Below are positions 1,192 to 23,911 of a stretch of 38,337 nucleotides of DNA, piece by piece. Where the stretch lies: assembly GCA_035266745.1 (NCBI GenBank), contig DATFMT010000215.1, positions 1 to 38,337 of the forward strand, read 5' to 3'. The position numbers were made by a program, and so were the translations under genes. This stretch comes from Geothermobacteraceae bacterium. Its GTDB lineage: Bacteria > Desulfobacterota > Desulfuromonadia > Desulfuromonadales > Geothermobacteraceae. The notes beneath the pieces were generated by a model, which searched no databases, was not told the DNA's origin, and saw only the letters and a list, made by a program, of their open reading frames with translations. Each line of letters opens with the position of its first letter. Positions within the stretch are counted from its first letter, which is position 1.

Positions 1192-1207
1192 CAGGTCCTT
1201 GCCGTTG

Positions 1208-1738: not shown

Positions 1739-1741
1739 AGG

Positions 1742-5133: not shown

Positions 5134-5181
5134 GGTTTTGTCGGCGGCTTCGCCGGAGACTCATCTGCTGGGTTCCCCTGC

Positions 5182-5226
5182 GGACCAGATCGTTCGACGT
5201 ACGCTGTACGCCTCACAATCTGGTCC
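5182..5226. other. 9-bp-stem hairpin in the 170-bp nuoF-nuoG spacer
   Basis: ggaccagat (5182-5190) is the exact reverse complement of atctggtcc (5218-5226), with a 27-nt loop. It sits in the only sizeable gap of an otherwise tightly packed operon. Confidence 0.4.
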
Positions 5227-5303
5227 TTGGGCACCTTGCATCTGAAACCTCTGGCTGTGCCGTAGTTACTCCCGGTTTATATAGCCCAATCGTTAAATGC
5301 TGG

Positions 5304-6578
5304 TTATCCTTTGAAGGGACAGTACCCCTTTTTCACATGATCTTCCAGTTCGTCCTCGAAATGGTTCAATAACCCTTCCAACGGTCCCATCGCCCCTTCG
5401 GCGAGGGCGCAGAAGGAACGGCCGGCGATATTCTTATGCTGATCCCTGAGCATGGCGATCAGCTCCCGGCTGCCGCGCCCGGCCTCGATCTCCTCGAGCA
5501 GCCAGCGCACCATCACCAAGCCGTCGCGACAGGGGGTGCACCAGCCGCAGGATTCGCGGGCGAAGAATTTCATCAGGTTGAGGGTCGCGCCGACCATGCA
5601 GGTGTCGCTGTCAAAAGCGGTCACGCCGGCGGTGCCGAAGCGGCTGCCGACCGCGGCCAGCGGATCGAAATCGAGCGCCACGTCGAGGTGCGCGGCGGTC
5701 AGATAGGGGGTCGAGGCCCCGCCGGGCAGGCAGGCCTTGAAACCCTTGCCGCCGCGCATGCCGCCGCCGATCTCAAGCACTTCACGCAGGGGGATGCCGA
5801 CCGGCAGCTCGAAACATTCGGTACGCTCGAGGTGACCGGAGAGGCCGAACAACTTGGTCCCGGACCCCTCCGGATTAACGGCCAGATCCTTGAACCATTC
5901 ACTACCGCCGGTGAGGATGTGCGGCACGTTGGCCACCGTCTCGATATTATTGACCGTGGTCGGTTTGCCGAACAGCCCCTTGACCGCCGGGAAGGGCGGC
6001 TTGCTGCGCGGATTGGCCCGCACCCCCTCGATGCCGTTGAGCTGGGAAGTCTCCTCGCCGAGGATGTAGCGGCCGGCGCTGCGGTGGACGTGGACCTGCA
6101 GGCCGTAGCCGCTACCGAGGATGTCCGGGCCGAGATAGCCGGCCTGCTTGGCCTCTTCGATGGCCCGCTCCAGGTTGCGTGAGCACTCCTCGTAGGCGTA
6201 GCGGATGAAGATATAGGCTTCCGGAACCTGCAGGGCGTAGGCCGAGACGATGACCCCTTCGAGGACCTGATGCGGGTCGGCCAGCAGCAGCTGCTTGTCC
6301 TTGTAGGTTCCCGGCTCCATCTCGTCGCCGTTGACCACCAGATACTTTGTCCCCGGCTGATCGGCGGGGAAGAACGACCACTTCAGCCCGGTCGAAAAGC
6401 CGGCACCGCCCCGGCCGCGCAGTCCCGAGGCCTTGACCGTCTCGCGTACCTCGGCCGGGGTCATGGACTTGAGCGCCCTTTCCAAACCCCGGTAGCCGCC
6501 GTTTTTGCGGAACTCGTCGAAAAAGACGGTCTCGCCAGGGCGGCGGTTCTTGAAGAGGATTTGCGGGTAGTCGGCCAT
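5304..6578 (-). CDS. nuoF: NADH-quinone oxidoreductase subunit F (NuoF), NADH/FMN-binding
   Basis: 424 aa. Contains GLRGRGGAGFSTGLKW (FMN/NADH site), a GDEMEPGT-type motif and C-terminal 4Fe-4S cysteines (ESCGWCTPCRDG). Confidence 0.95.
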   Translation of the reverse strand: MADYPQILFKNRRPGETVFFDEFRKNGGYRGLERALKSMTPAEVRETVKASGLRGRGGAGFSTGLKWSFFPADQPGTKYLVVNGDEMEPGTYKDKQLLLADPHQVLEGVIVSAYALQVPEAYIFIRYAYEECSRNLERAIEEAKQAGYLGPDILGSGYGLQVHVHRSAGRYILGEETSQLNGIEGVRANPRSKPPFPAVKGLFGKPTTVNNIETVANVPHILTGGSEWFKDLAVNPEGSGTKLFGLSGHLERTECFELPVGIPLREVLEIGGGMRGGKGFKACLPGGASTPYLTAAHLDVALDFDPLAAVGSRFGTAGVTAFDSDTCMVGATLNLMKFFARESCGWCTPCRDGLVMVRWLLEEIEAGRGSRELIAMLRDQHKNIAGRSFCALAEGAMGPLEGLLNHFEDELEDHVKKGYCPFKG

Positions 6579-6582
6579 GGCG

Positions 6583-7068
6583 TCAGGCTTTTTCCTTGTT
6601 CAGGATCGCATCCACCAGCTCCGGCGTCAGCCGGCCGTAGGTGGTCAGTCCAATCATCATTGCCGGGGCGTCGCCGCAGGCGCCGAGACAGCAGGTCGGC
6701 AGCAGGGTAAACACTCCATCGGCGGTCGTTTGGCCCGGAGCAATGCCGAGTTTTTGTTGCAGGTAGTCGTAGACGTGCTCGCCGTCGCGGCTCCAGCAGC
6801 AGATCGAATCGCAGACATGGATCACCTTGCGTCCCACCGGCTGACGGTAGATCTTGTCATAGAAGGTGGCGATCTCTTCGATCTGCAGGACAGAGAGGCC
6901 GAGGATGCTGCCGGCCAGTTCGACCCCGGCATCCGGTACCCAGCCGTGATGATCCTGAATCGCCCGCAGCAGATCGACGATCAATTCACGCGGGTGCTTG
7001 ATCGCCGCTGCCTTGGCGCGGAACGCTTCGAGCTGGTCTTGGGGGAGGAGTTTGTTCATAAGTTCCAT
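6583..7068 (-). CDS. nuoE: NADH-quinone oxidoreductase subunit E (NuoE), thioredoxin-like 2Fe-2S
   Basis: 161 aa. Cysteine pattern HVCDSICC...CCLGACGDAP is typical of NuoE. Lies between nuoBCD and nuoF. Confidence 0.93.
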   Translation of the reverse strand: MELMNKLLPQDQLEAFRAKAAAIKHPRELIVDLLRAIQDHHGWVPDAGVELAGSILGLSVLQIEEIATFYDKIYRQPVGRKVIHVCDSICCWSRDGEHVYDYLQQKLGIAPGQTTADGVFTLLPTCCLGACGDAPAMMIGLTTYGRLTPELVDAILNKEKA

Positions 7069-9453
7069 TTATCTATCCAGATCCGCCAGCACGAAATCGA
7101 TCGATCCCAAAATCGTGATCAAATCGGCGATCAACCAGCCACGGCTCATCAGCCCGGTCATCTGCAGGTGCGGGAAACTCGGGGTGCGAATCCGTGCCCG
7201 GTAGGGGACGTTGTTGCCGTCAGAGACCAGGTAGTAGCCGCACTCCCCCTTGCTCGATTCGATCGCCCGGTAACATTCGCCGCGCGGCGGGGTCATGCCG
7301 CGGGTGACGTTGCAGAAATGGTGGATCAGGCTCTCGATGTCCTGCAGGCCATCCTTTCGCTTCGGATAGACGTAGCGGTAATCCTCGCCGATCCAGCGCC
7401 CGCCCGGCATCTCGGCGGCGGCCTGCTTGATGATCTTCAGGCTTTCGCGCATCTCGCGCATGCGCACCTGGTAGCGGGCAAAGGAGTCGCCTCCGGTTGC
7501 GGTCGCCACATCGAAGTCATATTTCTCGTAGCCGGAATAGGGCATCTTGCGGCGCAGGTCCCACTCCAGGCCGGTGGCGCGCAGGTTCGGGCCGCTCATG
7601 CCCCAATCGATTGCTTCGTCGGTTGTCACTGCGCCGACCCCCTCGGTGCGGGCGCGGAAGATCGGACCGTCGTTGAGCAGGGTTTCCAGTTCGTCGAGGC
7701 GCTTGTCGAAATCCTTGGTAAAGGTGTGAACAACAGATTCCCAGCCCTTCGGCAGGTCCTGCGGAACACCGCCGATCCGGAACCAGGAGGGGTGCATGCG
7801 GCCGCCGGTGACCATCTCGACGATGTCGAAGATCTTCTCGCGCGATTCCAGGGCATAGAAAACCGGGGTCATGGCGCCGACGTCGTGGGCGAAGGTGCCG
7901 AGCCAGACCAGGTGGTTGGCGAGCCGGAACAGCTCGCAGAGCATGACCCGGATCGCCTGGGCGCGCTGCGGTACCTCGAGCCCGAGCAAGGTCTCCAGCG
8001 GCAGCAGGTAGGCGAGGTTATTCTGCACCCCGGAGAGGTAGTCGATGCGGTCGGTGTAGGGGATGAACTGGTTCCAGTGCTGACGCTCGGCCATCTTTTC
8101 GGCGCCGCGATGGTGGTAACCGATGTCGAGATCGACGTCCTCGATCTCCTCGCCGTCGAGCAGCAGGATCAGGCGCAGCACGCCGTGGGTGCCCGGGTGG
8201 TGCGGGCCGATGTTGAGCACCATCGGCTCCTCACCGGGTTTGATCTTGCGCCCCTTGAAGAAGTCACCCCCTTCGCGGGGAATCATGGTAGCGGCTGTTT
8301 CGGCGGTGTAGGCCGCCATCTCACTGGCACGGAAGACGTGCTCCTTGCGCAGCGGGTGCCCTTGCCACGAATCGGGCATCAGGATCCGGCGCAGGTCGTG
8401 GTGGCCGGTGAAGCGCAGCCCGAACATGTCGTAGACTTCCCGTTCGTACCAGTTGGCAGAGGGCCAGAGGTCGGTGATCGACGGCGCTTCCGGGTGGTCA
8501 CCGGTCAACGGTACCTTGACCCTCAGGTAGCCGGGATCGTCGAAATTGGTCAGGTGGTAGGTGAGGGTGTAATCGTGGCCTGACTTGCTGACCCGGGCGG
8601 TCTCATCGACGGCGGTCAGGTCTTCGAGCCGCCGGTACTTGACCGGGGCTTCCTGCTTGAGAAAGCGCAGCAGTTCCGGAGCGTCTTCCGCCGCGCTCAC
8701 CAGGGTCGGCATGTCGGCGGCATCCTCCTCGCGGACCCGCTCGCCGAAGCGCGCCGCAAGCGTCTGGCGCAGGTTCCCCGTCGAGGCGGGAAACTCGATC
8801 TGTGGTTGAGCCGGTCGCCACATCGCGTTCGAGCGGCTCTGCCAGAAGGTCGGCTGCTGCATGCTGGTGCCGCGGATGCTGCTGTTGCCGTAGCCGGGGC
8901 CGCGCGGGTCGCGGCTCTTGCTGACGCCGTCGATCAGGATTTCCCGGGTGGTCCCCTCGTGACCCCCCTGCATGCCGAGCACCTTGCGGGCCGGCTTCTC
9001 CTCGTTGCGGATTTTCTCCTGCAGCAGCATGATCCCCTGGATGAAGGCTTCCGGGCGCGGCGGGCAGCCGGGGACATAGACGTCGACCGGGACGATCTGG
9101 TTGACCCCCTGGATGACGCTGTAGACATCGTACATGCCGCCGGAGTTGGCGCAGCTCCCCATTGAAATAACCCATTTCGGGTTGGTCATCTGTTCGTAGA
9201 GGCGCAGGATCGACGGCCCCATCTTCTTGAACGGGGTGCCGGAGATCACCATCAGGTCGGCTTCGCGAGGGGTGCCACGCAGCACCTCGGCGCCGAAGCG
9301 GGCCAGGTCGAAGCGCGGGGTGAGGCTGGTGGTCATCTCGACGAAACAGCAGGAGAGACCGAAGAACATCGGCCACATGCTGTTGCTGCGCGCCCAGTTG
9401 ATGACGTCGTCGAGCGTCGTCAGGATGACATTGTCGGGGATTTCTTCAGTCAT
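7069..9453 (-). CDS. nuoBCD: Fused NADH-quinone oxidoreductase subunits B, C and D in one 794-aa polypeptide
   Basis: A single uninterrupted ORF. The N-terminal part is NuoB ([26 protein letters not shown] = N2 cluster ligands). A low-complexity linker of about 70 aa follows. The middle part is NuoC-like ([19 protein letters not shown]). The C-terminal part is NuoD ([13 protein letters not shown]...YTDRIDYLS...[12 protein letters not shown]). Confidence 0.93.
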
Positions 9454-9905
9454 AGTTCCTGTCCGCGACGCTGGACCGTCCTCGGCCGGGGGCCCCAGTC
9501 GAGGCCGCCCATCTTCCAGAGATAGACTAGGCCGAGAAACAGCACGACGATGAAAAAGGTGATTTGCCAGAAACCGGCCCAGCCGATCAAATCCCAGGCG
9601 ACCGCCCAGGAGACGATGAAAATCGCCTCGACATCAAAGACGATGAAGAAGATCGCCACCAGGTAAAAAGGCACCGGTTCGCGAAGTTTGGCTTCCCCGG
9701 TCGGCGCGATGCCGGATTCGTAGGGTTCCTCTTTGAGCCCGCCACGGGACTTGTGGCCGAGCAGCCAGCTGACCACCATCAGCGTGCCGATCAAGATCAG
9801 GGCGATCACCCCGTAGAGGACGAGCGACAGCAACCCTTCGGCACTCGGCGGGCTTTCTCCGCCGGTCGGGACCGGCAGCTGGCTGGCTAGGTTGAGGATC
9901 GGCAT
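9450..9905 (-). CDS. nuoA: NADH-quinone oxidoreductase subunit A (NuoA)
   Basis: 151 aa. Contains the NuoA/ND3 core ([32 protein letters not shown]). Its stop overlaps the nuoBCD start by 4 nt. The exact start is uncertain because the N-terminus is longer than usual. Confidence 0.88.
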
Positions 9906-11709: not shown

Positions 11710-12411
11710 ATGAATAAACCCGTTTGCGCGGTTGTCGGCGTCGGCCCCGGCAACGGCGCCGCGATTGCCAGGAAGTTTGCTGCGCAAGGCTACGCGGTGG
11801 CCCTTTGCGCCCGCAGTCGGGACAAGCTCGAGGTGCTGGCAGCCGAACTGCCCGCTGCGGCGGCATTCGTTTACGATGTCACCGACCCGCAGGCGGCAGG
11901 GTGGGTGTTTGCCGAGATCGAGCAAAAGCTGGGGCCGGTCTCAGTGGTCGCCTACAATGCCGGTTCGGGGACCTGGGGCAGGCTCGATGACGTCTCCGTC
12001 GAGGCATTCCAGTCCTCGTGGGAGGTCAACACCCGCGGCCTGTTCCTTGCAGTCAAGGCGGTGCTGCCGCAGATGCGTCGGCTGGGGGGCGGCGCCATCG
12101 TGGTTTCCGGTGCGACCGCCTCGGTGAGAGGGGGGTTGGAGACGACGGCCTTCGCCTCGGCCAAGGCAGCTCAGCGGAGCCTGACCCAGTCGCTGGCCAA
12201 GCAGCTCGGCCCGGAGAAGATCCACGTCGGCTATGTCGTCCTGGACGGTATGGTAGACCTGGAACGAACCATGGAGCGGATGCCGGACAAGCCGCTCGAT
12301 TTCTTCCTGAGCTCCGAACAGATTGCCGAGGCGGTCTATTATCTGGCGACGCAGCCGGAGCGCGCCTGGACCTTTGAGATGGATCTGCGCCCCTACGGCG
12401 AGAAATGGTAG
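11710..12411 (+). CDS. Short-chain dehydrogenase/reductase family protein, atypical (Phe in place of the catalytic Tyr)
   Basis: 233 aa. Gly-rich motif VVGVGPGNGAAIA, NNAG-like YNAG, and an S...FxxxK segment (SGATAS...AFASAKAA) where classical SDRs have YxxxK. Confidence 0.8.
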   Translation: MNKPVCAVVGVGPGNGAAIARKFAAQGYAVALCARSRDKLEVLAAELPAAAAFVYDVTDPQAAGWVFAEIEQKLGPVSVVAYNAGSGTWGRLDDVSVEAFQSSWEVNTRGLFLAVKAVLPQMRRLGGGAIVVSGATASVRGGLETTAFASAKAAQRSLTQSLAKQLGPEKIHVGYVVLDGMVDLERTMERMPDKPLDFFLSSEQIAEAVYYLATQPERAWTFEMDLRPYGEKW

Positions 12412-12423
12412 CCCGCCCGGTGC

Positions 12424-12789
12424 CTACCTGGGCAACTCGACGGTGACGGTCGTGCCGCCGTAGCCGTGGACGGAGTCATGGGCGCGCACCGTGACCTGGC
12501 CCGTCTTCGCGGGGATCTGCACCCCCGAGAGGCTGCGGGTAAAGGGTTGCTCCTCGGTATGCGGGTGTAGCAGGACGCGCGTCGCCAGCACGGCCCCGGT
12601 CGCATCGACGATCTCCCATTTATCGGCGTAATGCTGCCAACCTTTGTCCCGGTGCGACACGGTGACCTGGAACCGGTAGCTACCGTCACCATTTCTTGTC
12701 GCTTCGGCACGCAGCACATCCGCTTCTCCGGCGTGGGCAGCGGCAACCGGGAGCAGGAGCAGCAGGAACGACAGTGGAAATACCCTCAT
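12424..12789 (-). CDS. Small secreted protein of unknown function
   Basis: 121 aa. Cleavable signal peptide (MRVFPLSFLLLLLPVAAAHA), a good RBS (GAGGTGAA before the ATG) and a beta-rich mature part. No family recognised. Confidence 0.6.
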   Translation of the reverse strand: MRVFPLSFLLLLLPVAAAHAGEADVLRAEATRNGDGSYRFQVTVSHRDKGWQHYADKWEIVDATGAVLATRVLLHPHTEEQPFTRSLSGVQIPAKTGQVTVRAHDSVHGYGGTTVTVELPR

Positions 12790-12884
12790 TTCACCTCTTC
12801 AGCACGGTTTCAAAGAAGTATATCCGATTCCGCTAGTGCCGCTTGCGCGGGCCGTGGCCCCGGCGGTCGTGGACGATGGCGTCC

Positions 12885-12948
12885 GGGGTTGTCGGAGCAA
12901 GCGCCGTCGGAAAAGATTTCGACATGTTTTTCAGTCATAGGTGCTCGT
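12885..12948 (-). pseudogene. Truncated second copy of the rnhA 5' end (first 19 codons conserved, then diverges)
   Basis: My minus-strand translation from the ATG at 12948 gives [19 protein letters not shown], compared with rnh[20 protein letters not shown]. It then reads RHRPRPPGPRPAQAALAESDILL and stops. The upstream DNA (12949-13030) also resembles the rnhA upstream region. Confidence 0.65.
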
Positions 12949-13201
12949 TGCTGCAGGAGATGGATTGTTGGGCGACGGGCGTCGCCGAGCTTTCTGGGGA
13001 GGAGAGCATGAAGGGGGCGGAGGGGCTAGGGGAGATACTGAATTTCCTGAGTTGTGGGTTTACGACCCAATACTGCAACTTTTTGCAATATTGCGTTGTC
13101 AATTTGACCTCTTCCAGGTTCGACCACCAGCCCCAGGTTTTATGAGCTGTTATCAGGCCTGGTGGGGGTGGGGGGCAGGCGCACTGATCCCGCGGAAGAA
13201 A

Positions 13202-13708
13202 TCAGTGCTTGTGCAAGAGTTGTAGTATTCCCTGCAACAGTTGCAGCGGGGTTGGCGGGCAGCCGGGGATCACCGCGTCGACGGGCAAAACCTGTGCGAC
13301 ACCGGCACAACTGGCATAGGACTCGCCGAACTCCCCGCCATGTTTCGCGCAGTCACCCATGGCAATGACCAGTTTGGGGGCTGGCGTTGCATTGTAGGTA
13401 CGCTGCAGCGCCTCCTGCATGTGGCGAGTCACCGGGCCGGTGACCAGGAGCAGATCGGCATGCCGTGGCGAGGCGACGAAGTGGATTCCGAAGCGTTCGA
13501 TATCGTAGAAACCGTTATTGACAGCGTGCATTTCGAGCTCACAGCCGTTACAGGACCCGGCGTCAACCATCCGGATAGCCAGCGAGCCGCCGAACTGGCG
13601 CGCGATCTCACGCTGGCAGGCGGTCCCGAGTTCGGCAACCTCAGCACCGACGGACACGGGTTCGGTCAGCTTGCCAGTTTTGAGAGTTTTTTTATAGAGA
13701 TGATACAT
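13202..13708 (-). CDS. ehrS: Ehr/Hyf-type complex small subunit (NuoB/HycG/HyfI-like), [4Fe-4S] ligands present
   Basis: 168 aa. All four cluster cysteines are present in GSCNGCELE, GDCAKHGG and PGCPP. Symbol assigned by analogy to the Geobacter ehrABCDLS naming, recalled from memory. Confidence 0.85.
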   Translation of the reverse strand: MYHLYKKTLKTGKLTEPVSVGAEVAELGTACQREIARQFGGSLAIRMVDAGSCNGCELEMHAVNNGFYDIERFGIHFVASPRHADLLLVTGPVTRHMQEALQRTYNATPAPKLVIAMGDCAKHGGEFGESYASCAGVAQVLPVDAVIPGCPPTPLQLLQGILQLLHKH

Positions 13709-13742
13709 CGTCGCTGCTCCTCAAGGTTGCCGGTTCGACCCG

Positions 13743-15347
13743 TTACAAGTCATGTCCGCTATAGGAGCCATTGACCGATTTGTTGCAGGCCGGAAAATCG
13801 GGGACAATCGTACCGTCAGTCATCTGTTCGAGCGCCAGCCAGTTGAGCCAGCTGGGATCTCGCGGGAAGTAGCGTAAAACCCGCCCCTGTGCATCGAGGC
13901 GCAGATAGGCCAGGGTTTCACCTCGCCAGCCCTCAATCAACCCCAGCCCCTGCACCTGCTGACCGGTCGCGTGACAGGGAACCGCAATAGCTGTCTTTGG
14001 CAGCTGGCGGAATAACTTGGCGAGCAGATCGATGGAAATCAGGATTTCATCCCCACGCACCCTGACCCGTCGTGCAATGTCCCCTTCGAGATAGGCTGGA
14101 ACCTCAACCTCAAGCTGGTCGTAAGGGGGGTAGGGCGCATCGCGGCGCAAATCATCCTGCAGATTGCTGGCGCGGCCGACATAACCCAAAACTCCGAGCC
14201 TGCTGGCGGTCTCCGGGGGCAGCACTCCGGTGTTGCGCAGGCGATCCTGCAGCGAGGGGTATTCGAGCAGCATCGGCAGCAGTTCTGCGACTTCGCTGCG
14301 CAGGCGCTCCCCGGCGGTCAGCAGGGCCTCGACCTGCTCTGCACCCAGGTCACTGTTCACCCCACCGGCGATCAGATAATCGAACAGCAGGCGGTGGCCG
14401 AAAAAATGCGCGTTATCGCGCTGCCAGAGTTCACGCAGCCGGGTCAGCTGGGTCTGGGCGAAGGCGAAACCGACGTCGTTACAGATGGCGCCGATGTCGC
14501 CAAGATGGTTGGCAATTCGTTCCCGTTCGCAGGCGATGGCCCGCAGGGCGAGGGCACGCGCCGGGAGTCGGGTGCCGAGTGCCTGTTCCGCGGCCTGGCA
14601 GGCGGCCCAACTGTGGGCGACGCTGCTATCGCCGGAGACTCGCGCAGCGAGGCGGATCAAACCCTGCAGATCGCGACCCACCGCAATTTTTTCGATTCCT
14701 TTGTGAACATAGCCGAGCCTCTCTTCGAGGCGCAGAATCGTTTCGCCGACCGCCTGAAAGCGGAAATGTCCCGGTTCGATGATCCCGGCATGAACCGGAC
14801 CGACCGGAATTTCGTAGACTCCGCTCCCCGCGATTGGCGGGAAGGGGTAGGTGGAATCGGCCGGGGTTTCAGCCGCAGGATGACCGGCGCGGGGAAAATC
14901 GTTGCGCAACGGATATTCATCCGCAGCCCAGCCCCGGTGGCGGGTCCAGCGGCGCTGATCCGGGTGGTCGCTGAAATGGACCCCGAGCAGATCCTGAATG
15001 TGGCGTTCCGGACGATCCGCAGCGGGGAAAAAGGGGGTCTGCGCGTTGAGCTGCGGATGATTCTCATCCAGAGCGGTTTCAACCAGCACCTGCCCGTCGC
15101 AGCCGGAAAACAGACTGAAAATCAGGATCCGTGGTGGGCAATGGTCCCCCCAACTGGCCGAAAAGCGCAGCGATTTCTTCGCCGCGATTTCGGCGACCTT
15201 GCCCCAGTCCGCCGCATTGACTCGCAGACGGCAGCAGCTTGGATTGAGCGCAGGTTGTTCGGCGACTTCAAGCTGCAGAGCCTGCAAGGCCTGTCCCAGC
15301 TCCCTGCTCTTGCCGGAGGTGACCCGTGCGGGTTGCCGCTGACTCAT
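13743..15347 (-). CDS. ehrL: Ehr/Hyf-type complex large subunit (NuoC-NuoD/HycE/HyfG-like) lacking NiFe-binding cysteines
   Basis: ORF 13743..15680 trimmed to the ATG at 15347 (MSQRQPARV...), which overlaps the stop of the upstream gene as ATGA. Contains the group-4 hydrogenase signature GPVHAGIIEPGHFRF. The RxCGxCxxxH site reads RVSGDSSVAH, and the C-terminus reads DFPACNKSVNGSYSGHDL instead of DPCxxCxxR. Confidence 0.88.
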   Translation of the reverse strand: MSQRQPARVTSGKSRELGQALQALQLEVAEQPALNPSCCRLRVNAADWGKVAEIAAKKSLRFSASWGDHCPPRILIFSLFSGCDGQVLVETALDENHPQLNAQTPFFPAADRPERHIQDLLGVHFSDHPDQRRWTRHRGWAADEYPLRNDFPRAGHPAAETPADSTYPFPPIAGSGVYEIPVGPVHAGIIEPGHFRFQAVGETILRLEERLGYVHKGIEKIAVGRDLQGLIRLAARVSGDSSVAHSWAACQAAEQALGTRLPARALALRAIACERERIANHLGDIGAICNDVGFAFAQTQLTRLRELWQRDNAHFFGHRLLFDYLIAGGVNSDLGAEQVEALLTAGERLRSEVAELLPMLLEYPSLQDRLRNTGVLPPETASRLGVLGYVGRASNLQDDLRRDAPYPPYDQLEVEVPAYLEGDIARRVRVRGDEILISIDLLAKLFRQLPKTAIAVPCHATGQQVQGLGLIEGWRGETLAYLRLDAQGRVLRYFPRDPSWLNWLALEQMTDGTIVPDFPACNKSVNGSYSGHDL

Positions 15348-16810
15348 AACAGCCCCCTGCCGACGACCATGATGGTCGCCTGGTCGAGCCAGCGGGAAAG
15401 GACGTCGGGGATGGCGATGCCGAGCAGCAGCACCAGCAGCAGATGGAGGACCACCGGCCACATGTTGGCGTCGATTGCGTCTTGTCCTGCAGGTTGTTCG
15501 CCGAAAACCATCGGTTGCACATGCCGGAACAGCCCCGAAAAGGCGACCGCCAGGCCGCTGAGCAGGGGAATCACCAGCCAGGGCCAGCTCTTGATCGTCG
15601 CGCTGAAGAGCAGGAATTCGCTGGTAAAGACGCCGAACGGCGGGAAGCCGGCAATGGCCACCGTGCCGAGCAAAAAGCACCAGCCGACCATCGGCTGGGT
15701 TTTTATCAGGCCGCGGATGCCATCAATGCTTTGAGTGCCGGCGACATGGGCGATGTGGCCGACGGTGACAAAGATCGAGGACTTGGTCAAAGAATGAACA
15801 ATCATGTGCAACAGCGCGCCGAAAGTGGCCAGCGGTCCGCCGATGCCGAAGGCAAAGGTCATCAGCCCCATGTGTTCGATCGATGAGTAGGAAAACATCC
15901 GTTTGATATCACGCTGGCGGTGGAGCAACAGTCCCGCGAGGGTGAAGGTGAGCAGGCCGAAGCCCATCATCATCCTGCCCGCCAGATCATTCTCCAACGC
16001 CGGATCGATGATCATCTTGAAGCGGACCAGCGCATAAAGCGCAATGTTGAGCAGCAGGCCCGAAAGAATGGCCGACATCGGTGTCGGCCCCTCGGAGTGG
16101 GCATCGGGTAGCCAGTTATGCAGAGGCACCAGGCCGACCTTGGTGCCGTAGCCGACCAGTAGAAATCCGAAGGCCAGCAACAGCACCGCCGGTTCAAGTT
16201 GGGTCGCATGCTGGTAGAGCACACTCCACAGCAGGCTGTCGTCACTGCCAGGCAGAATTCGTTCGGCGGCAAAATAGACCAGGACCGTGCCGAACAGCGC
16301 CTGGGCGATGCCGACCCCGCAGAGGATGAAGTATTTCCAGCCGGCTTCGATCGACTCGGGGGTGCGATAGAGCGACACCAGCAGCACGGTGGCCAGGGTT
16401 GCACCTTCGATCGAGACCCACAGAATCCCGAGATTGTTGGTCGAGAGGGCGACCAGCATGGTCAGCAGGAAGCCCTGATACATCGAATGGTAGAGCCGCA
16501 TGCGGCCGTCGTCGACCCGGCCGATTTCCCGTTCGTGAGCCATATAGGGGCGCGAAAAAACCGCGGTGGTCATGCCGACAAAGGCGTTGAGCAGAATCAG
16601 GTAGACGTTGAAGGCGTCGATATAGAACAGCTTGCCGGGGCTGAGCATCGGCCCCTGGTTGAAAATGTTGAGCGCCAGTTGCAGCGAGCAGACGAAGCCG
16701 GCGATACAGATCAGCAGATTGAGGGTGCCGGCGCTTCGCCAGTGGCCGATCACGCCGAAGAGCAGAGTGCCGATCAGCGGCAGCAACAAGGTCAGGTAAA
16801 GGGCACTCAT
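15344..16810 (-). CDS. ehrD: Antiporter-like membrane subunit (NuoM/N, HyfF-like)
   Basis: 488 aa polytopic protein. Conserved channel residues are visible (WVSIEGATL, GYGTKVGLVPLHNWLPDAHSEGP, HSLTKSSIF). 4-nt overlaps with both neighbouring genes. Confidence 0.88.
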   Translation of the reverse strand: MSALYLTLLLPLIGTLLFGVIGHWRSAGTLNLLICIAGFVCSLQLALNIFNQGPMLSPGKLFYIDAFNVYLILLNAFVGMTTAVFSRPYMAHEREIGRVDDGRMRLYHSMYQGFLLTMLVALSTNNLGILWVSIEGATLATVLLVSLYRTPESIEAGWKYFILCGVGIAQALFGTVLVYFAAERILPGSDDSLLWSVLYQHATQLEPAVLLLAFGFLLVGYGTKVGLVPLHNWLPDAHSEGPTPMSAILSGLLLNIALYALVRFKMIIDPALENDLAGRMMMGFGLLTFTLAGLLLHRQRDIKRMFSYSSIEHMGLMTFAFGIGGPLATFGALLHMIVHSLTKSSIFVTVGHIAHVAGTQSIDGIRGLIKTQPMVGWCFLLGTVAIAGFPPFGVFTSEFLLFSATIKSWPWLVIPLLSGLAVAFSGLFRHVQPMVFGEQPAGQDAIDANMWPVVLHLLLVLLLGIAIPDVLSRWLDQATIMVVGRGLL

Positions 16811-17484
16811 TTGTCGACCTCGGTCAAACGGTTGAGGTGATCAACGTCGAGGGAACCAATTCCCGAACGGATCTGGAAGAAGAAGATGCCGAACAGGACC
16901 GCCGCCACCAGCACGTCGAAGGCGACCCCCAGTTCAACGACCATCGGCATTCCGTAGGTAGAGACGACCGCGGCGAAGAAAAGCCCGTTTTCCATCGACA
17001 TGAAGCCGATGACCTGGGCGACCGCCTTGCGCCTGGTGATGATCATCAACATGCCGATCAGCACGACCGCTAATGAAATGGCGATCGTGTTGCGGGTCGC
17101 AAGCAGTGAGAGCTCGCGAATCGGCAGCACGACGTAGTAGCTGAAGAGAGTCAGGGCGCCGGCGGCGATCATGACCAGCGAGCTCCCGCCGACGGTCTCG
17201 ACGCTGCGGCGGATATCGAGCCGGACCACCAGGCGGCGCAACTGCCAGGGAATGAAGAAGACCTTCAAGCCCAGGGTCAGGGCCGCTGAAATGAACAAAT
17301 GATGGTGTCCCGAGCTGCTCGCCATCAGCACCGTGGCGGCAAACAACAGCACGCCCTGCCAGGCGAAGGTGTGAATCAGACCGATCATCCGCGTCTGGGC
17401 CAGCAGCAGAAAGGAACTGAAGAGGATCAGCGCGGCCAGGGTCAGGATCAGCTGTTCACTGAAGGTCAGCAGCGGGAAGCTCAT
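16807..17484 (-). CDS. ehrC: HyfE-like small membrane subunit (NuoK-related)
   Basis: 225 aa, about 7 hydrophobic helices. Size and position match HyfE of hydrogenase-4-type operons. Confidence 0.8.
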   Translation of the reverse strand: MSFPLLTFSEQLILTLAALILFSSFLLLAQTRMIGLIHTFAWQGVLLFAATVLMASSSGHHHLFISAALTLGLKVFFIPWQLRRLVVRLDIRRSVETVGGSSLVMIAAGALTLFSYYVVLPIRELSLLATRNTIAISLAVVLIGMLMIITRRKAVAQVIGFMSMENGLFFAAVVSTYGMPMVVELGVAFDVLVAAVLFGIFFFQIRSGIGSLDVDHLNRLTEVDK

Positions 17485-17485
17485 C

Positions 17486-18430
17486 TCAGCGCACCTCCAG
17501 GATCACATGGCTTAACATGCCGAGCAGCGAGAGAATGAAGGCCAGCCCCAACAGCTGTGGCACCCGGAACAGGCGCATCTTGGCCAGGCCGCTTTCGGCT
17601 GCGGCCAGCACAAAGCCGAGCAACATCAGTTTGATCAGTAACAGCAGCGCCGCAACCAGGAGGTCTGGCGGCGTCAAACTGGTCGCCATCCCCCAGGGGA
17701 CGAACAGATTCACCAGCAAGACGCCATAGAGCAGCAGTTTGATCATCGCCGCCCACTCCATCAGGGCCAGATGGCGACCGCAGTATTCGAGGATCATCGC
17801 TTCGTGGACCATGGTCAGTTCGAGATGGGTCGCCGGGTTGTCGACCGGGATCCTCCCGGTTTCGGCCACGGCCACCAGCACCAGTCCCATGGCGGCGAAA
17901 ATAAAGGATGGATAGAGTTGAAACGGACGCTGCAGCAGGGCGCTGATCATGGTCGAGAGGTTGGTGCTCGAAACGCTCATCGCCAGAGTGAAGATCGCAA
18001 GTAACATCGCCGGTTCAGCCAGCGAGGAGATGGTCATCTCGCGCGAAGAACCCATGCCGCCGAAGGCGGTGCCGATATCCATCCCGGCCAGGGCGAGAAA
18101 GAATCGACCGAGGGCAAAAAAACCGACCAGCACAATGGCATCAGCCAGCGCCGAGGTCGGCAGGTTGGGAGCGACCAGCGGGATCACCGAACAGGCCAGA
18201 GCAGTGACGCTGAAGACGATATAGGGCGCAATCCGGAAGATGGTCGAGGCGTTCGCCGCGACCACGATCTCTTTGCGGAACAGCTTGCCCAGATCGCGGT
18301 AAGTCTGCCAGGGCGCCGCACCCTGGCGATTCTGGAATTTGCACTTGCACCATTTCACCCAGCCGCTCAGCAAGGGCGCGGCGGCGATCATCAGCCCGGT
18401 TTGCAAGAGTGCCAGCAACCAGCCGTTCAT
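17486..18430 (-). CDS. ehrB: NuoH/HycD/HyfC-like membrane subunit
   Basis: 314 aa polytopic protein with the HycD/NuoH-like core (RIPVDNPATHLELTMVHEAMILEY). There is a 1-nt gap to the next gene, and its start overlaps the stop of the upstream gene by 4 nt. Confidence 0.87.
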   Translation of the reverse strand: MNGWLLALLQTGLMIAAAPLLSGWVKWCKCKFQNRQGAAPWQTYRDLGKLFRKEIVVAANASTIFRIAPYIVFSVTALACSVIPLVAPNLPTSALADAIVLVGFFALGRFFLALAGMDIGTAFGGMGSSREMTISSLAEPAMLLAIFTLAMSVSSTNLSTMISALLQRPFQLYPSFIFAAMGLVLVAVAETGRIPVDNPATHLELTMVHEAMILEYCGRHLALMEWAAMIKLLLYGVLLVNLFVPWGMATSLTPPDLLVAALLLLIKLMLLGFVLAAAESGLAKMRLFRVPQLLGLAFILSLLGMLSHVILEVR

Positions 18431-20433
18431 ACCAGGATCCAGAGGATAAGGAGCAGGGTGAAGAAGGAGTAGGAGAGATAGATGCGGATGTTCCCCCCCT
18501 GAATCAGTGAGGCCCGTTTGGCCGCCGCCAGCAGAAGTTGCCCGATCGGAAGATAGATTTTTTGCCAGGCCCAGTCGCCGACTTCAAGCTGATAACGTTC
18601 CGGGCTCTGACCCGTGGCGGGGAGCACTGCTTCTTTATGTGGCCAGACCGGGCTGAAAATGCGTCGAATCGGCATGCTGAAGGCGGTAGCGGTGTATTGC
18701 ATCCGCGCATTTAAGGGGCCGAAGCCACAATCCCAGGGGGGCGCGATGCGCGTTGGAGTACGACGGCGCTGTGGATGAAACCAGAGCCAGCTGATCAGCC
18801 AGGCCAGTGCCAGGCCGAGCAGCACCATTGGCGCTCCGTAAGAGGCCGCTGCCGGTGAGATTGGTGTCAACCAGAGAGCGCCGCCGGCAGTCGCTTCGGC
18901 TAAGTCCTGGTGCAACAGCAGCTCTGCTATGTTGCTCAACACGCCGACCGTCCAAGTCGGCATGACGCCGAAACCGAGGCAACAGAGCGCCAGAATCGCC
19001 TGGGCAAAGCGCATCCCGTAGGAGGCTTCACTCGCGGTCTTTGCCGGTTCGCTCCGCGGCAGGCCGAGAAACACCACGCCGAAGACCTTGACGAAACAGG
19101 CCGCAGCCAACGCCCCGGTCAGTGCCAGGACTGCCGCCGCGACCGGAATCAGCGAGCCGAGCACGCCACTTTCCAACGCCGGACCCTGCAGGGCCGCCTG
19201 AAAGGTCAGCCACTCCGAGACGAAGCCATTAAAAGGCGGCAGCGCCGAAATACTGATACAGCCGATCAGAAAACAGCTGGCGGTGAAGGGCATGCGATGG
19301 ATCAATCCGCCCATCTTCTCCATGTCGTGCTGTTTGCTGTGCTGCAGAACCGCACCGGCGCCGAGAAAAAGCAGGCTCTTGAAGAGTGCGTGATTCAGGC
19401 AGTGATAAAGTGCGGCGACCAGGCCCAGGGCGGCAAGGCTCGGGTGGCCGGTCCCGGCGAAAATAATGGCAAGGCCGAGACCGATGTAGATGATGCCGAT
19501 ATTTTCAACGCTGTGGTAGGCCAGCAGACGCTTTAAATCATGCTGCATCAGCGCATAGAGGACCCCGAGCAGGGCTGAAGCCGCTCCGACAACCAGGACC
19601 AGCACCCCCCATTGCCAATGAAAATTGCCAAGGAGTGAAAAACTGAAGCGGATAAAGCCGTAGACGGCGACCTTGAGCATCACCCCCGACATCAGCGCCG
19701 AAATATGCGAGGGTGCCACCGGGTGCGCCTGGGGCAGCCAGACATGCAGAGGCACTAGGCCCGCTTTTATACCGAAGCCGACAAAAGCGAGTAGAAAGGC
19801 GATGGTCTCCCACCCGGGCGACAGTTGAGCGCTGGCCATATCGGAGAAGGCAAAGCCACCGCCAAATCCCGAGAGGATGCCAAAACCGAGTAAAATGCAG
19901 AGTCCGCCGACCTGGGCCATCAACAGGTAGATGAAGGCGGCGCTGCGGTTTTCAGCGCGATGGTGTTGATAAGCCACCAGAAAGTAGCTGGAGACCGACA
20001 TCAGTTCCCAGCTGACCATGAAGGAAAAGGCATCGGCAGCTAACGTCAGCAGGAACATGCCGGTGACAAACAGCCCACTGAAGATCGTAATTAGTGCCAG
20101 CGGCTGGCCCTCCGCTTCGTACTCCCGGCAATAAGCCGGGCCGTAACAGGCGACGACGCTGGTAATCAGACCGACAATGGCGAGAAAAAACCCGGCCAGG
20201 GGATCAAGCGCAAAGTGGCTCTGCAACCAGGGGAGGCCGATCGGCAAGATGATCTGCGAAGTTTGTCGCAGGACCAAGGCCATTCCGCCGGCCACTACGG
20301 CCGAAATGCCGGCGAGGCCAAGCAGGGTAAACGCCAGGCTTTTGTAGAGACGAGGGAAACGGTAAACGAGTAGCGGGAGCAGTGCGGAACAGAGCGCGAG
20401 AACAACCGCTAGTTGTGCAATCGGTAGTGGCAC
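18427..20433 (-). CDS. ehrA: NuoL/HycC/HyfB-like antiporter-type membrane subunit
   Basis: 668 aa. Conserved residues are visible in VSWELMSV, GFGIKAGLVPLHVWLPQAHP and NHALFKSLLFLGAG. HyfB/HycC-type C-terminal segment (PPWDCGFGPLNARMQYTATAFSMP). GTG start with AAGGAG about 10 nt upstream. Confidence 0.88.
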   Translation of the reverse strand: MPLPIAQLAVVLALCSALLPLLVYRFPRLYKSLAFTLLGLAGISAVVAGGMALVLRQTSQIILPIGLPWLQSHFALDPLAGFFLAIVGLITSVVACYGPAYCREYEAEGQPLALITIFSGLFVTGMFLLTLAADAFSFMVSWELMSVSSYFLVAYQHHRAENRSAAFIYLLMAQVGGLCILLGFGILSGFGGGFAFSDMASAQLSPGWETIAFLLAFVGFGIKAGLVPLHVWLPQAHPVAPSHISALMSGVMLKVAVYGFIRFSFSLLGNFHWQWGVLVLVVGAASALLGVLYALMQHDLKRLLAYHSVENIGIIYIGLGLAIIFAGTGHPSLAALGLVAALYHCLNHALFKSLLFLGAGAVLQHSKQHDMEKMGGLIHRMPFTASCFLIGCISISALPPFNGFVSEWLTFQAALQGPALESGVLGSLIPVAAAVLALTGALAAACFVKVFGVVFLGLPRSEPAKTASEASYGMRFAQAILALCCLGFGVMPTWTVGVLSNIAELLLHQDLAEATAGGALWLTPISPAAASYGAPMVLLGLALAWLISWLWFHPQRRRTPTRIAPPWDCGFGPLNARMQYTATAFSMPIRRIFSPVWPHKEAVLPATGQSPERYQLEVGDWAWQKIYLPIGQLLLAAAKRASLIQGGNIRIYLSYSFFTLLLILWILV

Positions 20434-20476
20434 CGGCAGATAACTCCTTTGAATATCGAGGGATTCAAGAGGCGAA

Positions 20477-20493
20477 GAACTGTTCCGCAGTTC
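20477..20493. promoter_or_regulatory. Inverted repeat GAACTG-N5-CAGTTC in the divergent ehrA/sulP control region
   Basis: gaactgttccgcagttc has perfect 6-bp arms. It lies about 45 bp upstream of the ehrA start codon. No binding protein is assigned. Confidence 0.25.
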
Positions 20494-20774
20494 TCTGTCG
20501 TTGGGTGGGCTATTCTAGAACGGCATTCTGTAACTGTCAAACGGAGTCTGCAGGTAAATATTGGTTCGATATGCTCAAACAACAGTGAAAAGTTTTGCTT
20601 TGCGCCGCTTTCGTGGCGTAAAACCACTTTTTAAGGTTGAATTATTTTCTTGCAGGCGTATGATCACCCGCTGTTGGACAAGACCTGCAAGGCCCTGCCC
20701 GGCGTATTCCGCCGACACCTGGACGTACCGCCCTCGCTGCCGACGGACATCCGTGAACTCTGCATTGAGGGAGA

Positions 20775-22520
20775 TTGCGCGTGTCCCAGAATCGACTGGT
20801 TCCCAAGCTCTTCAGTACCCTGCGGGAAGGCTATTCCCGCCAACAATTCAGCAATGACCTGCTGGCCGGCGTCATCGTCGGTATCGTCGCCCTGCCGCTG
20901 GCGATCGCCTTCGCCATCGCCTCGGGGGTCAAGCCGGAACAGGGGATCTACACCGCGGTGGTGGCCGGCTTTCTGATCTCGGCGCTCTCCGGCAGCAAGG
21001 TGCAGATCGGCGGGCCGACCGGCGCCTTTATCGTCATCGTCTACGACATCGTCCAGCGCTACGGCTACGACGGCCTGGTGATCGCCACCCTGATGGCCGG
21101 TGCGCTGCTGGTGCTGATGGGGCTGGCGCGGCTCGGAGCGGTGATCAAGTTCATCCCCTACCCGGTGACGGTCGGCTTTACCAGCGGCATCGCCCTGCTG
21201 ATCTTTTCCGGCCAGTTGCGCGACCTGTTCGGCCTGCAGCTGGAGACGGTCCCCTCGGAGTTTATCGAGAAGCTTGCCGCCTACGGCGAACACCTCGGCA
21301 GTATCTCCCCGGCAGCGGCCGCCATTGGCCTGACGACCATCCTCGTCATTCAGCTCTGGCCCAGGGTGACCCGCCGGGTGCCGGGGTCGCTGGTGGCCAT
21401 CCTGCTCACCACCTTGCTGGTGAGTCTGTTCGACCTGCCGGTGGCGACCATCGGCAGCCGCTTCGGCAGTGTGCCGAACAGTCTGCCGCTGCCGCACCTG
21501 CCGGCGCTCCCCGACTGGGCTCATCTTCGGCAGCTGTTCTCCCCGGCGCTGACCATCGCCCTTTTGGCCGGGATCGAGTCGCTGCTATCGGCGGTGGTCG
21601 CCGACGGCATGATCGAGAGTCGCCATCGTTCCAACATGGAGCTGATCGGCCAGGGGGTGGCCAACCTGGTCTGCCCGCTGTTCGGTGGCATCCCGGCCAC
21701 CGGGGCGATTGCGCGCACCGCGACCAACATCAAGAACGGCGGTCGCACCCCGATCGCCGGCATGGTCCACGCGCTGACCCTGCTGCTGATTCTGCTGTTT
21801 TTTGGCAAGTGGGCGGCGCTGATCCCGATGCCGACCCTGGCTGGAATCCTGGTGGTGGTCGCCTGGAACATGAGCGAGGCGCATCTGTTCGCCAAGCTGT
21901 TGCGTGCCCCGCGTGGTGATGTGCTGGTGTTATTGTCGACCTTTGGCTTGACAGTGCTGGTCGATCTGACCGTCGCAATCCAGGTCGGCATGGTGCTGGC
22001 CGCGTTTCTGTTCATGCAGCGGATGGCCGACGCCACCCAGGTCGGTTTTATCACCCGGGAGCTGCAGGATGGTGAAGATGAAACCAGCGATGATCCACTC
22101 AGCCTGAGTCAACGGGATGTCCCGGTCGGGGTTGAGGTGTTCGAGATCAACGGCCCGTTTTTCTTCGGTGCCGCCGACAAGTTCAAAAATGCCCTGGACA
22201 CAGTCAGTGTCCCGCCGCGAGTCTTGATCCTGCGGATGCGCCATGCCCTGACCCTGGATGCCACGGCCCTGCAGGCGCTGGAGAACGTTCATACAAAAGC
22301 GCTTAAACGTGGTACCCTGTTGCTGTTGTCCGGAGTCCATGCCCAGCCGTTGCTGGTCATGGAGCGTTCCGGTTTTCTTGACCGGTTAGGTCAGGAGAAT
22401 GTCTTTGCCAACATCGACGCGGCGCTGAATCGATCCCGCGAGACGCTCGGTCTTCCGGTGGTTGCGGCTCCCGGTGCATTTGTGCCGACCGTGACCCGGG
22501 AAATCAATCCGGAAGCCTAA
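20775..22520 (+). CDS. SulP-family anion transporter (sulfate/bicarbonate permease type) with C-terminal STAS domain
   Basis: 581 aa. The N-terminus [36 protein letters not shown] is a typical SulP signature. More than 10 TM segments and a C-terminal STAS-like domain ([15 protein letters not shown]). TTG start at 20775, or GTG at 20781. Confidence 0.88.
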
Positions 22521-23833: not shown

Positions 23834-23911
23834 TGGCGTCCCCAGGGGGATTCGAACCCCCGTCGCCGCCGTGAAAGGGCGGTGTCCTGGGCCAGGCTAG
23901 ACGATAGGGAC
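23834..23911 (-). tRNA. tRNA-Glu (anticodon UUC), copy 1, CCA encoded
   Basis: Minus strand reads GTCCCTATCGTCTAGCCTGGCCCAGGACACCGCCCTTTCACGGCGGCGACGGGGGTTCGAATCCCCCTGGGGACGCCA. Cloverleaf checked by hand. Anticodon loop is CTTTCAC and T-loop is TTCGAAT. Confidence 0.93.

Follow-up and report, generated by a model that had tools for sequence, protein, structure and literature searches.

A six-gene operon of a Geothermobacteraceae bacterium encodes a probable Hyq-type complex with a conserved, cysteine-free large-subunit pocket

The operon and its products

The DNA analysed here (the window) is a stretch of 38,337 nt from a Geothermobacteraceae bacterium of the order Desulfuromonadales (GenBank assembly GCA_035266745.1, contig DATFMT010000215.1). 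Its minus strand carries a six-gene operon (13202–20433) in the order B-C-E-F-G-I, the fifth gene of which encodes a hydrogenase-like large subunit devoid of the four cysteines that ligate the Ni-Fe centre. The operon very probably specifies a complex of the energy-converting hydrogenase-related (Ehr) class and of the Hyq type, in which the Ni-Fe site has been lost. A cysteine-free large subunit is a published hallmark of the widespread Ehr/Hyq family and is not in itself new; the window provides a new Desulfuromonadales member. The genes are tightly packed and partly overlapping, and all six open reading frames (ORFs) are intact and translationally coupled. Their products, with lengths in amino acids (aa), are as follows.

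18427–20433, minus strand: HyfB/HyqB-like antiporter-like subunit, 668 aa (NCBIfam hydrogenase 4 subunit B, 816 bits, above cutoff)
17486–18430, minus strand: HyfC/HyqC-like, NuoH/HycD-like subunit, 314 aa (Pfam PF00146)
16807–17484, minus strand: HyfE/HyqE-like membrane subunit, 225 aa (NCBIfam hydrogenase 4 membrane subunit, E = 2e-24, below cutoff)
15344–16810, minus strand: HyfF/HyqF-like antiporter-like subunit, 488 aa (NCBIfam hydrogenase 4 subunit F, 724 bits, above cutoff)
13743–15347, minus strand: large subunit, HyqG/EhrL-like, a fusion of NuoC-like and NuoD/HycE-like parts without Ni-Fe ligands, 534 aa
13202–13708, minus strand: small subunit, HyqI/HycG/NuoB-like, with a CxxC-type [4Fe-4S] site, 168 aa (Pfam PF01058)

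The large subunit consists of an N-terminal NuoC-like domain (Pfam PF00329) coupled to a C-terminal NuoD/HycE-like domain (PF00346), the latter also giving a weak, sub-threshold match to PF00374. Translation of the minus strand over 13743–15680 yields one ORF. The longer, GTG-initiated version reaching 15680 was rejected as an ORF-calling artefact and the start placed at the ATG at 15347, which forms an ATGA overlap with the stop of the preceding HyfF-like gene. Among PDB chains the best match was E. coli HycE (7z0s_E, E = 3e-57, residues 87–531; HMMER). The AlphaFold2 (AF2) model of the monomer showed a confident fold with a predicted template modelling score (pTM) of 0.85, and the best Foldseek match was again HycE, with a template modelling (TM) score of 0.80, as is found for the large-subunit fold of group 4 [NiFe]-hydrogenases.

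The small subunit has the CxxC...C...CP arrangement of the proximal [4Fe-4S] cluster of group 4 small subunits. Its best PDB match was MbhJ, with HycG nearly equal, and its ligands align with those of both. All four ligands, C53, C56, C120 and C150 (the last within C-P-P), are invariant in 52/52 family members. The HyfB-like and HyfC-like subunits were best matched by HycC (7z0s_C) and HycD (7z0s_D, E = 5e-43) respectively. Charged residues of the membrane arm are likewise fixed: E172, E221, R224, D228, E235 and E243 of the HyfC-like subunit are invariant in family members, as are E165 and E184 of the HyfE-like subunit (57 members), E143, K223, H344, H348, K352 and E407 of the HyfB-like subunit (56 members) and E135, K224, H335, H339, K343 and E398 of the HyfF-like subunit (60 members). 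Both antiporter-like subunits thus present, in every member, the Glu of transmembrane helix (TM) 5, the Lys of TM7, the His/His/Lys of TM11 and the Glu of TM12.

The Ni-Fe ligand positions of the large subunit

Three segments of the large subunit correspond to the active-site region of group 4 hydrogenases.

14613–14642, minus strand: L1-equivalent motif R236-V-S238-G-D240-S241-S-V-A-H245, in place of RxCGxCxxxH (aligned to HycE and MbhL)
13746–13799, minus strand: C-terminal motif DFPACNKSVNGSYSGHDL, residues 517–534, in place of ...DPCxxCxxR (aligned to HycE DPCYSC)
14757–14801, minus strand: beta1-beta2 loop GPVHAGIIEPGHFRF, residues 183–197 (shared with Cys-bearing sister proteins)

Group 4 large subunits carry two cysteines in the L1 motif RxCGxCxxxH and two in the L2 motif DPCxxCxx(R/H). 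In the window protein the Arg, Gly and His of L1 are kept and both Cys are Ser, while L2 reads N-G-S-Y-S-G-H-D-L-stop. HMMER placed RVCGICGFAHS of HycE over RVSGDSSVAHS and DPCYSC over NGSYSG, after which the protein ends in HDL-stop, and MbhL of P. furiosus (6cfw_L; RMCGICSFSH with Cys68 and Cys71) aligned in the same way as HycE. The four ligand positions are therefore S238, S241, S528 and G531, and no Cys is left. The C-terminal motif, D517-FPACNKSVNGSYSGHDL534, is followed directly by TAA and forms the end of the protein.

The original prediction, made from the letters of the window, had described the exchange of both Cys for Ser in RVSGDSSVAH at 14613–14642 and the substitution of DPCxxC at 13746–13799, and both descriptions are correct. 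Alignment with group 4 large subunits and with Nqo4/NuoD, which had been proposed as a check, found the ligands absent and no offset; HMMER, MAFFT and Foldseek were concordant, and an offset alignment that would restore the ligands was ruled out. The sole Cys nearby, C521 (PACNKS), lies five residues upstream of the DPC-equivalent and is C, I, N, V or T across the family. As a candidate Ni-Fe ligand it was rejected, being variable and not homologous to any ligand.

The prediction had further drawn attention to the missing C-terminal extension. The protein does end at the motif; the closest Cys-bearing relatives (e.g. clusters P0149 and P0151, ...LCY[SA]CxDR-stop) likewise end without an extension, and its absence is therefore not diagnostic of Ni-Fe loss. 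The upstream loop, said to be hydrogenase-like rather than like the GPHHPGTHG of NuoD, proved to be common to the Cys-bearing sister proteins. It contains the xEPxxFR motif with its proton-relay Glu, and GPVHAGIIEPGHFRF is identical to the loop of these relatives; the Glu of this hydrogenase-type beta1-beta2 loop is retained as E191.

Comparison with the complex I encoded in the same window

A canonical complex I is encoded beside the operon and provides an internal reference for the NuoD-like part of the large subunit.

7069–9453, minus strand: canonical NuoB-NuoC-NuoD triple fusion (NuoBCD), 794 aa

The NuoD part of this fusion keeps RIDY, GTHG and GPHHPGTHG, the last as had been noted in the prediction, and its C-terminus too reads as given there. 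In T. thermophilus Nqo4, R84-M-D86-Y87-L-H89 aligned at the L1 motif, with the quinone-binding Tyr87 falling on G239 of the large subunit. The reading of the pocket as neither a Ni-Fe site nor an obvious quinone site was thereby borne out, given that the four ligands and the equivalents of Tyr87 and His38 are all absent. The nuo genes of the window occupy 377–9905 in the order nuoA-BCD-E-F-G-H-I-J-K. The same arrangement is seen in Geopsychrobacter (locus L001), where nuo and the hyq-like operon are parted only by RNase H and a small gene.

Conservation of the pocket across phyla

Relatives of the large subunit were confirmed in at least 596 species genomes in a scan of one genome per GTDB species. 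The closest named proteins (63–70% identity) are from Geopsychrobacter, Geothermobacter, Desulfuromusa and Desulfuromonadaceae. The best 80 of these at least 596 relatives come from Desulfobacterota, Methylococcales, sulfur oxidisers of the Chromatiales and Thiotrichales, Zetaproteobacteria, Nitrospirota, Burkholderiales, Acidithiobacillus and Rhizobiales including Xanthobacter, with one member from the Actinomycetota. The six genes stand in the same B-C-E-F-G-I order in Desulfobacterota, Gamma-, Beta-, Alpha- and Zetaproteobacteria, Acidithiobacillus and Actinomycetota.

Conservation was assessed in a set of 119 close relatives (at least 56% identity) and in a wide set of 79 members from many phyla. 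Within the close set, R-V-S-G-D-S-[ST]-V-x-H-x-W and PDFPxCNKSVNGSY[SA]GHDL-stop are invariant or nearly so, and the loop GPVHAGIIEPGHFRF, invariant in 119/119, remains nearly invariant across phyla. Residues conserved in at least 97% of the wide set include H186, E191, H194, R196, R236, G239 and D240 in the loop and L1, and D517, F518, P519, N522, K523, S524, N526, Y529, G531 and D533 in the C-terminal motif. Compared with the Geopsychrobacter orthologue, the ratio of nonsynonymous to synonymous substitution rates (dN/dS) is 0.14, at a dS of 1.68 that is near saturation. These data show strong purifying selection and speak for a working machine, not a decayed hydrogenase. The original description of the pocket as replaced is right for the cysteines and misses that few parts of the protein are as well conserved across phyla as the pocket, a sign of a new function instead of decay.

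Origin of the cysteine loss

A profile-free search of 1.84 billion cluster representatives returned 870 clusters at E <= 1e-30, the best 150 of which were examined. Among these 150, all four Cys are present in 22 (R-x-C-G-x-C-x-x-x-H ... L-C-Y-[SA]-C-x-D-R) and none of the ligands in about 98. The Cys-bearing sister proteins resemble the window protein in the GPxHAGIIEPGHFRF loop, the DFPLxNKSF frame, their similar length and the lack of a C-terminal extension, and differ from it in keeping RxCGxCxxxH and LCY[SA]CxDR. They are probably group 4f [NiFe]-hydrogenases, by analogy with the published placement of Ehr closest to 4f (PMC10284858).

Between the two groups, C-G-[A/V]-C becomes S-G-D-[S/T/E/N] and x-C-Y-[SA]-C becomes x-S-Y-[SA]-G. 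The position of D240 is Ala, Val, Thr, Leu or Met in the Cys-bearing sisters, and Asp240, which lies between the two former N-terminal ligands, therefore appears as a gain specific to the Cys-less clade. In a rough neighbour-joining tree the Cys-less proteins form one derived clade next to the Cys-bearing proteins, and the window protein groups with P0076, P0121 and 504-aa alphaproteobacterial clusters. As judged from these sequences, the large subunit descends from Cys-bearing relatives of the group 4 [NiFe]-hydrogenases, with a single origin of the Cys-less clade.

In locus L057 and in clusters P0130, P0132, P0134, P0175, P0222, P0232 and P0268 only the first Cys is kept ('R[VI]CGDS...'), the other three ligand positions being S/A and G. 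These members may mark an intermediate stage in the loss of the Ni-Fe site, or else reversions.

Genomic surroundings of the operon

Upstream of the operon lie a candidate promoter and a divergently transcribed transporter gene.

20512–20540, minus strand: sigma-70-like promoter TTGACA-17-TAGAAT, 11/12, about 80 nt upstream of the first gene
20775–22520, plus strand: SulP/STAS anion transporter, divergent, a possible, putative functional neighbour (Pfam PF00916 and PF01740; DauA-like, below cutoff)

The promoter call is based on a consensus scan only, in which two sites were found against 0.1 expected. The GC content of the operon (60.6%) equals that of the window (59.9%), so that the operon appears native and a horizontal origin is disfavoured.

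Gene context was compared in 82 sequences, comprising 81 loci and the window. Genes for SulP, for DUF2490 and for a sensor kinase together with a sigma-54 regulator recurred as neighbours, for the most part in Methylococcales alone, and were therefore not counted as functional evidence. A SulP gene adjoins the hyq-like operon in 15/82 sequences, namely the window and L011, L015, L017, L019, L025–L028, L030–L032, L036, L038 and L056. In Methylococcales it immediately precedes the operon in the same orientation, in some cases as a duplicate pair; it is divergent in the window and L031. The DUF2490 gene follows the small subunit in 10 Methylococcales loci. A role of the SulP neighbour as a bicarbonate transporter, which would link the operon to CO2 uptake, was considered and rejected, the nearest NCBIfam models being DauA and generic SulP, with BicA far below cutoff.

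Genes for NuoI/HycF-like proteins, HycB/HyfA or formate dehydrogenase, and hyp or nik genes, were absent from the operon and from the 38-kb window. Beside the operon in the 81 loci and the window, no ferredoxin, NuoI-like, formate dehydrogenase, hyp or nif gene recurred; hyp and nik genes were absent beside all 81 loci, and neither NuoI (2x[4Fe-4S]) nor an electron-input module was found in the operon or recurring beside its homologues.

Elsewhere in the window, the small-subunit gene is followed by an unrelated secreted 121-aa ORF (12424–12789). Two tRNA-Glu(TTC) genes on the minus strand (23834–23911 and 30212–30289) are identical at 76/78 positions; one pair change between them is compensatory, and some 35 nt of their flanks are similar as well. 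They bound a 6.3-kb segment of lower GC content (53% vs 61%) that encodes an Ada-like AraC/MGMT protein, a GDSL lipase and a 679-aa protein with four CxxCH haem motifs and four PKD domains. The segment may be an inserted island or the product of a tRNA-mediated duplication.

Proposed function

The sequences suggest a complex that lacks a Ni-Fe(CO)(CN)2 centre, yet would be a working redox-coupled ion translocator. The best explanation overall is a Hyq-type Ehr complex that couples redox chemistry to ion translocation and likely links a low-potential carrier with quinone, an explanation whose chance of being right is put slightly below even. The more specific best guess, a reversible ion-translocating ferredoxin (or flavodoxin):quinone oxidoreductase, is tentative and rather more apt to be wrong than right. 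In such an enzyme, a low-potential soluble carrier (ferredoxin or flavodoxin) would dock directly on the small and large subunits, as it must given that there is no NuoI/HycF-like subunit. Electrons would pass via the single cluster between the carrier and a quinone held in the polar Ser/Asp/Tyr/His pocket, and this transfer would be coupled to ion translocation in the membrane arm. In anaerobes such as the Desulfuromonadales host of the window the reaction would run forward, from ferredoxin to menaquinone, re-oxidising ferredoxin from 2-oxoglutarate or pyruvate oxidation and conserving energy as ions are pumped. The opposite direction is envisaged for aerobic lithotrophs and diazotrophs, which would spend membrane potential to generate low-potential reductant. 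Deletion of hyq in Azorhizobium caulinodans impairs diazotrophic growth, with effects that depend on the quinone pool being reduced and the membrane potential being high (PMC2650096, PMC3357923), a dependence that the reverse mode would explain.

Several observations weigh against a ferredoxin:quinone oxidoreductase. The quinone ligands of complex I are missing, with G239 at the position of Tyr87 and I190 at that of His38. The small subunit motif is SCNGCELE (CxxC) and lacks the tandem CC that we take, from the Nqo6 structure, to be the defining N2-ligating motif of NuoB; the NuoB part of the NuoBCD fusion in the window reads SCCFVEM. The cluster motif is of the low-potential hydrogenase type. 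The ligands aside, the module is hydrogenase-like, and a low-potential soluble substrate would fit at least as well as quinone. The gene context of the 82 sequences yielded no electron donor or acceptor. In the AF2 monomer the predicted local distance difference test (pLDDT) score is below 50 at the pocket-forming residues 160–216 and 513–534, and no claim is therefore made on pocket geometry. Finally, H2 evolution has been assigned to Hyq even in an A. caulinodans nifK mutant (PMC3357923), which fits a ferredoxin:quinone mechanism only if another H2-forming enzyme is assumed.

The last observation belongs to a model from the Ludwig laboratory, in which Hyq is an 'endo-hydrogenase', that is, an H2:quinone oxidoreductase. 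About 80% of microaerobic H2 evolution in A. caulinodans is hyq-dependent and persists in a nifK hupSL double mutant; hyq is under NifA regulation, and deletion strains grow more slowly under diazotrophic conditions (PMC2650096, PMC3357923). In the tree, the window protein shares a subclade with the 504-aa alphaproteobacterial proteins, and it has both the CxxC cluster and the proton-relay Glu of hydrogenases. That the complex truly converts H2 at a non-canonical active site is nevertheless very unlikely. No Cys near the pocket is conserved family-wide, the alphaproteobacterial HyqG cysteines being partly present here and variable elsewhere, and hyp genes are absent beside all 81 loci and the window. 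To our knowledge, every case of biological H2 activation relies on an Fe or Ni centre with one or more thiolate ligands. By analogy with the structures of complex I and hydrogenases, the former Ni-Fe site and the quinone site would be the same cavity beside the cluster; one shared cavity would serve only one substrate, and a single cluster could not supply both an H2 and a quinone site, which makes the H2:quinone scheme geometrically implausible. The A. ferrooxidans homologue is classed as a non-hydrogenase in HydDB (PMC7735108), Ehr is not induced by H2 in Nitrospira moscoviensis (PMC12342949), and the evidence on Hyq is of a genetic kind only. A bolder version, built on the A. caulinodans hyq genetics, has the invariant Cys-free pocket (S-G-D-[S/T] ... 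N-x-S-Y-S-G-x-D-L-COOH), adjacent to the hydrogenase-type [4Fe-4S] cluster and proton-relay Glu, hold a novel cofactor or metal that catalyses H2/H+ conversion. It is a shade less probable still, and if true would make Ehr/Hyq a new hydrogenase class in hundreds of aerobic and anaerobic species.

The polar pocket of small residues (S, G, D, S/T; N, x, S, Y, S, G), with its gained invariant Asp, could instead suit a substrate other than H2 or quinone, such as a sulfur species, some other small polar compound or a hard metal ion bound through Asp, Ser, Asn and Tyr. The MBS/MBX complexes, where the proximal cluster has been proposed as the site of chemistry, offer a precedent, the cluster motif is of the hydrogenase type and many hosts are sulfur, iron or nitrite lithotrophs. 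However, the operon has neither the Mrp module nor the NuoI-like subunit of MBS, MbsL is only a distant match, host ecology is too diverse for one special substrate and no substrate-related gene is conserved nearby, so that this reading is considered unlikely. A comparable, low probability is given to the complex being mainly a device for ion translocation or homeostasis, with the peripheral arm and cluster as regulator or sensor, maybe energising neighbouring anion transporters. The invariant ion-pathway residues fit such a device, as do the SulP neighbours of 15/82 sequences, the adjacent CitMHS/DASS transporters with TrkA_C domains in 3 loci, a gene cluster provisionally read as a Ca2+/Na+ antiporter (no family search run) in 3, and the PTS-EIIA(Ntr)-like regulator after the operon in Geopsychrobacter. 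Yet 12/15 SulP cases come from one order, Methylococcales, and are therefore not independent, and the closest relatives of the window (L001, L002 and L003) have no adjacent SulP. Moreover, the invariant cluster Cys and pocket exceed the usual needs of a purely structural role, and redox chemistry is the only apparent energy source. Least probable is a decayed, non-functional hydrogenase remnant, as stated for Geobacter Ehr (PMC13194489). All four catalytic ligands are indeed gone, and Ehr missense mutations piled up in a long-term electrode culture of G. sulfurreducens (PMC13194489). Against this stand six intact, translationally coupled ORFs, the dN/dS of 0.14, detection of the proteins in proteomes (PMC7894505) and the invariance of pocket, cluster ligands and channel residues across phyla and hundreds of genomes. 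These conservation data contradict the statement that Ehr is simply non-functional, and decay appears effectively refuted by them.

Implications

Among the hosts of Ehr/Hyq, which is encoded in at least 596 species genomes, are methanotrophs, rhizobia, Burkholderiales and metal reducers as well as oxidisers of sulfur, iron and nitrite. In databases the labels 'Ni,Fe-hydrogenase III large subunit' and 'NADH-quinone oxidoreductase subunit C' are routinely given to these complexes, which inflates inferred H2 metabolism. Given that Ehr/Hyq stands between group 4 hydrogenases and complex I, its reaction also bears on the evolution of complex I. Very high H2 evolution by a Cys-less enzyme has been claimed by one laboratory and has so far met with neither confirmation nor refutation. 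The window itself adds one more family member, and the contribution of this work is the set of family-wide invariants. The near-invariance of the pocket across phyla, the gain of Asp, the invariant cluster and channel residues, the dN/dS and the loop and frame common to the Cys-bearing sisters are new here. The invariants G239-D240, E191, S528-Y529-x-G531-x-D533 and the CxxC cluster constitute concrete mutagenesis targets and argue against a dead hydrogenase.

Comparison with known systems

The operon shares with complex I (NuoCD/Nqo4 and NuoB) the same fold, the lack of a Ni-Fe site, one terminal [4Fe-4S] cluster and an antiporter-like arm, and differs from it in lacking Tyr87, His38, the tandem-Cys NuoB motif, NuoI and NuoEFG. 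E. coli formate hydrogenlyase and hydrogenase-4 (HycE, HyfG; 7Z0S) give the best structural match for the large, HycD-like and HycC-like subunits; unlike them, the window operon has no Ni-Fe ligands, HycF/HyfH, HycB/HyfA or nearby formate dehydrogenase or hyp genes. MBS/MBX complexes are set apart by an Mrp-type module and the NuoI-like MbsN: the window operon has only six subunits, and MbsL (6u8y_L) is a distant match to its large subunit (E = 2.5e-19 vs 3e-57 for HycE).

The Ehr class, of Ech- or energy-converting hydrogenase-related complexes, goes back to Coppi 2005 and Marreiros 2013, as cited in later papers (PMC4758237, PMC6349859, PMC10284858, PMC7894505, PMC12342949). Its defining property is a set of subunits like those of group 4 hydrogenases in which the large subunit has no Ni-Fe Cys ligands (PMC4758237, PMC6349859, PMC10284858), and the window operon has this composition. 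A search of the PDB and of a library of papers found no solved structure or biochemical characterisation of any Ehr/Hyq member. The function of Nitrospirales Ehr was given as 'unknown' in 2025 (PMC12342949), and the A. ferrooxidans homologue is encoded by a hyfBCEFGI cluster (PMC7735108). Ehr of G. sulfurreducens (GSU0739-45), the subunits of which are abundant in proteomes of this organism (PMC7894505), is likewise a Ni-Fe-ligand-free group-4-like set and comes from the same bacterial order (PMC7894505, PMC4758237, PMC6349859). It differs from the window operon in having seven genes and two NuoL-like subunits, its published composition being EhrA-1, A-2, B, C, D, L and S. Both kinds occur in tandem in Geopsychrobacter electrodiphilus (L001), where a six-gene orthologue of the window operon stands beside a divergent seven-gene operon with two NuoL-like subunits that matches the published G. 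sulfurreducens composition. By this comparison, the window operon would be a Hyq-type six-gene paralogue and not the orthologue of the GSU Ehr. The second L001 operon (12260–21605, L001_2) lies directly downstream of the window orthologue, and its large subunit reads 'EAAAGDTSIGH'. An HTH_17/PTS-EIIA(Ntr)-like regulator parts the two L001 operons; the window has neither the regulator nor a second operon.

The closest counterpart is the hyqRBCEFGI operon of A. caulinodans (AZC_4360-4355), which has the same six-gene architecture (Ng 2009, Sprecher 2012; PMC2650096, PMC3357923) and whose HyqG was already noted by Sprecher et al. 2012 to lack both CxxC motifs (PMC3357923). The six structural genes B-C-E-F-G-I, the fused NuoC-NuoD and the four-Cys small subunit of the Hyq type are all present in the window, and the order is also found in Xanthobacter, Acidithiobacillus, Zetaproteobacteria and Actinomycetota loci. 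The public names given in the P0138 clusters disagree and are in part mistaken ('Ni,Fe-hydrogenase III large subunit', 'NADH-quinone oxidoreductase subunit C', 'hydrogenase expression protein HypE'). Because the names of cluster members are generic or wrong, the link to Hyq is drawn through the Xanthobacter flavus locus (L070) and published Cys positions. In the 504-aa HyqG of A. caulinodans, Cys258, Cys491 and Cys497 are conserved (PMC3357923). L070, whose large subunit is about 45% identical to that of the window, carries the Hyq signature ...CNKSFNCSYSGVDL, matching Cys491 and Cys497, and its protein ends in ...DFPLCNKSFNCSYSGVDL, which positions the HyqG cysteines exactly. In the window protein, C289 is the equivalent of Cys258 and C521 that of Cys491, while G527 stands at the position of Cys497. 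Since the three cysteines are not conserved in the wider family, they define an alphaproteobacterial subgroup only. The window also differs in having a sigma-70-like promoter match instead of a hyqR-type sigma-54 activator gene, and its host belongs to an anaerobic Desulfuromonadales lineage whereas A. caulinodans is a microaerophilic diazotroph. Gene order, the NuoC-NuoD fusion without CxxC, the ...CNKSxNxSYSGxDL-stop frame and the four-Cys small subunit are common to both.

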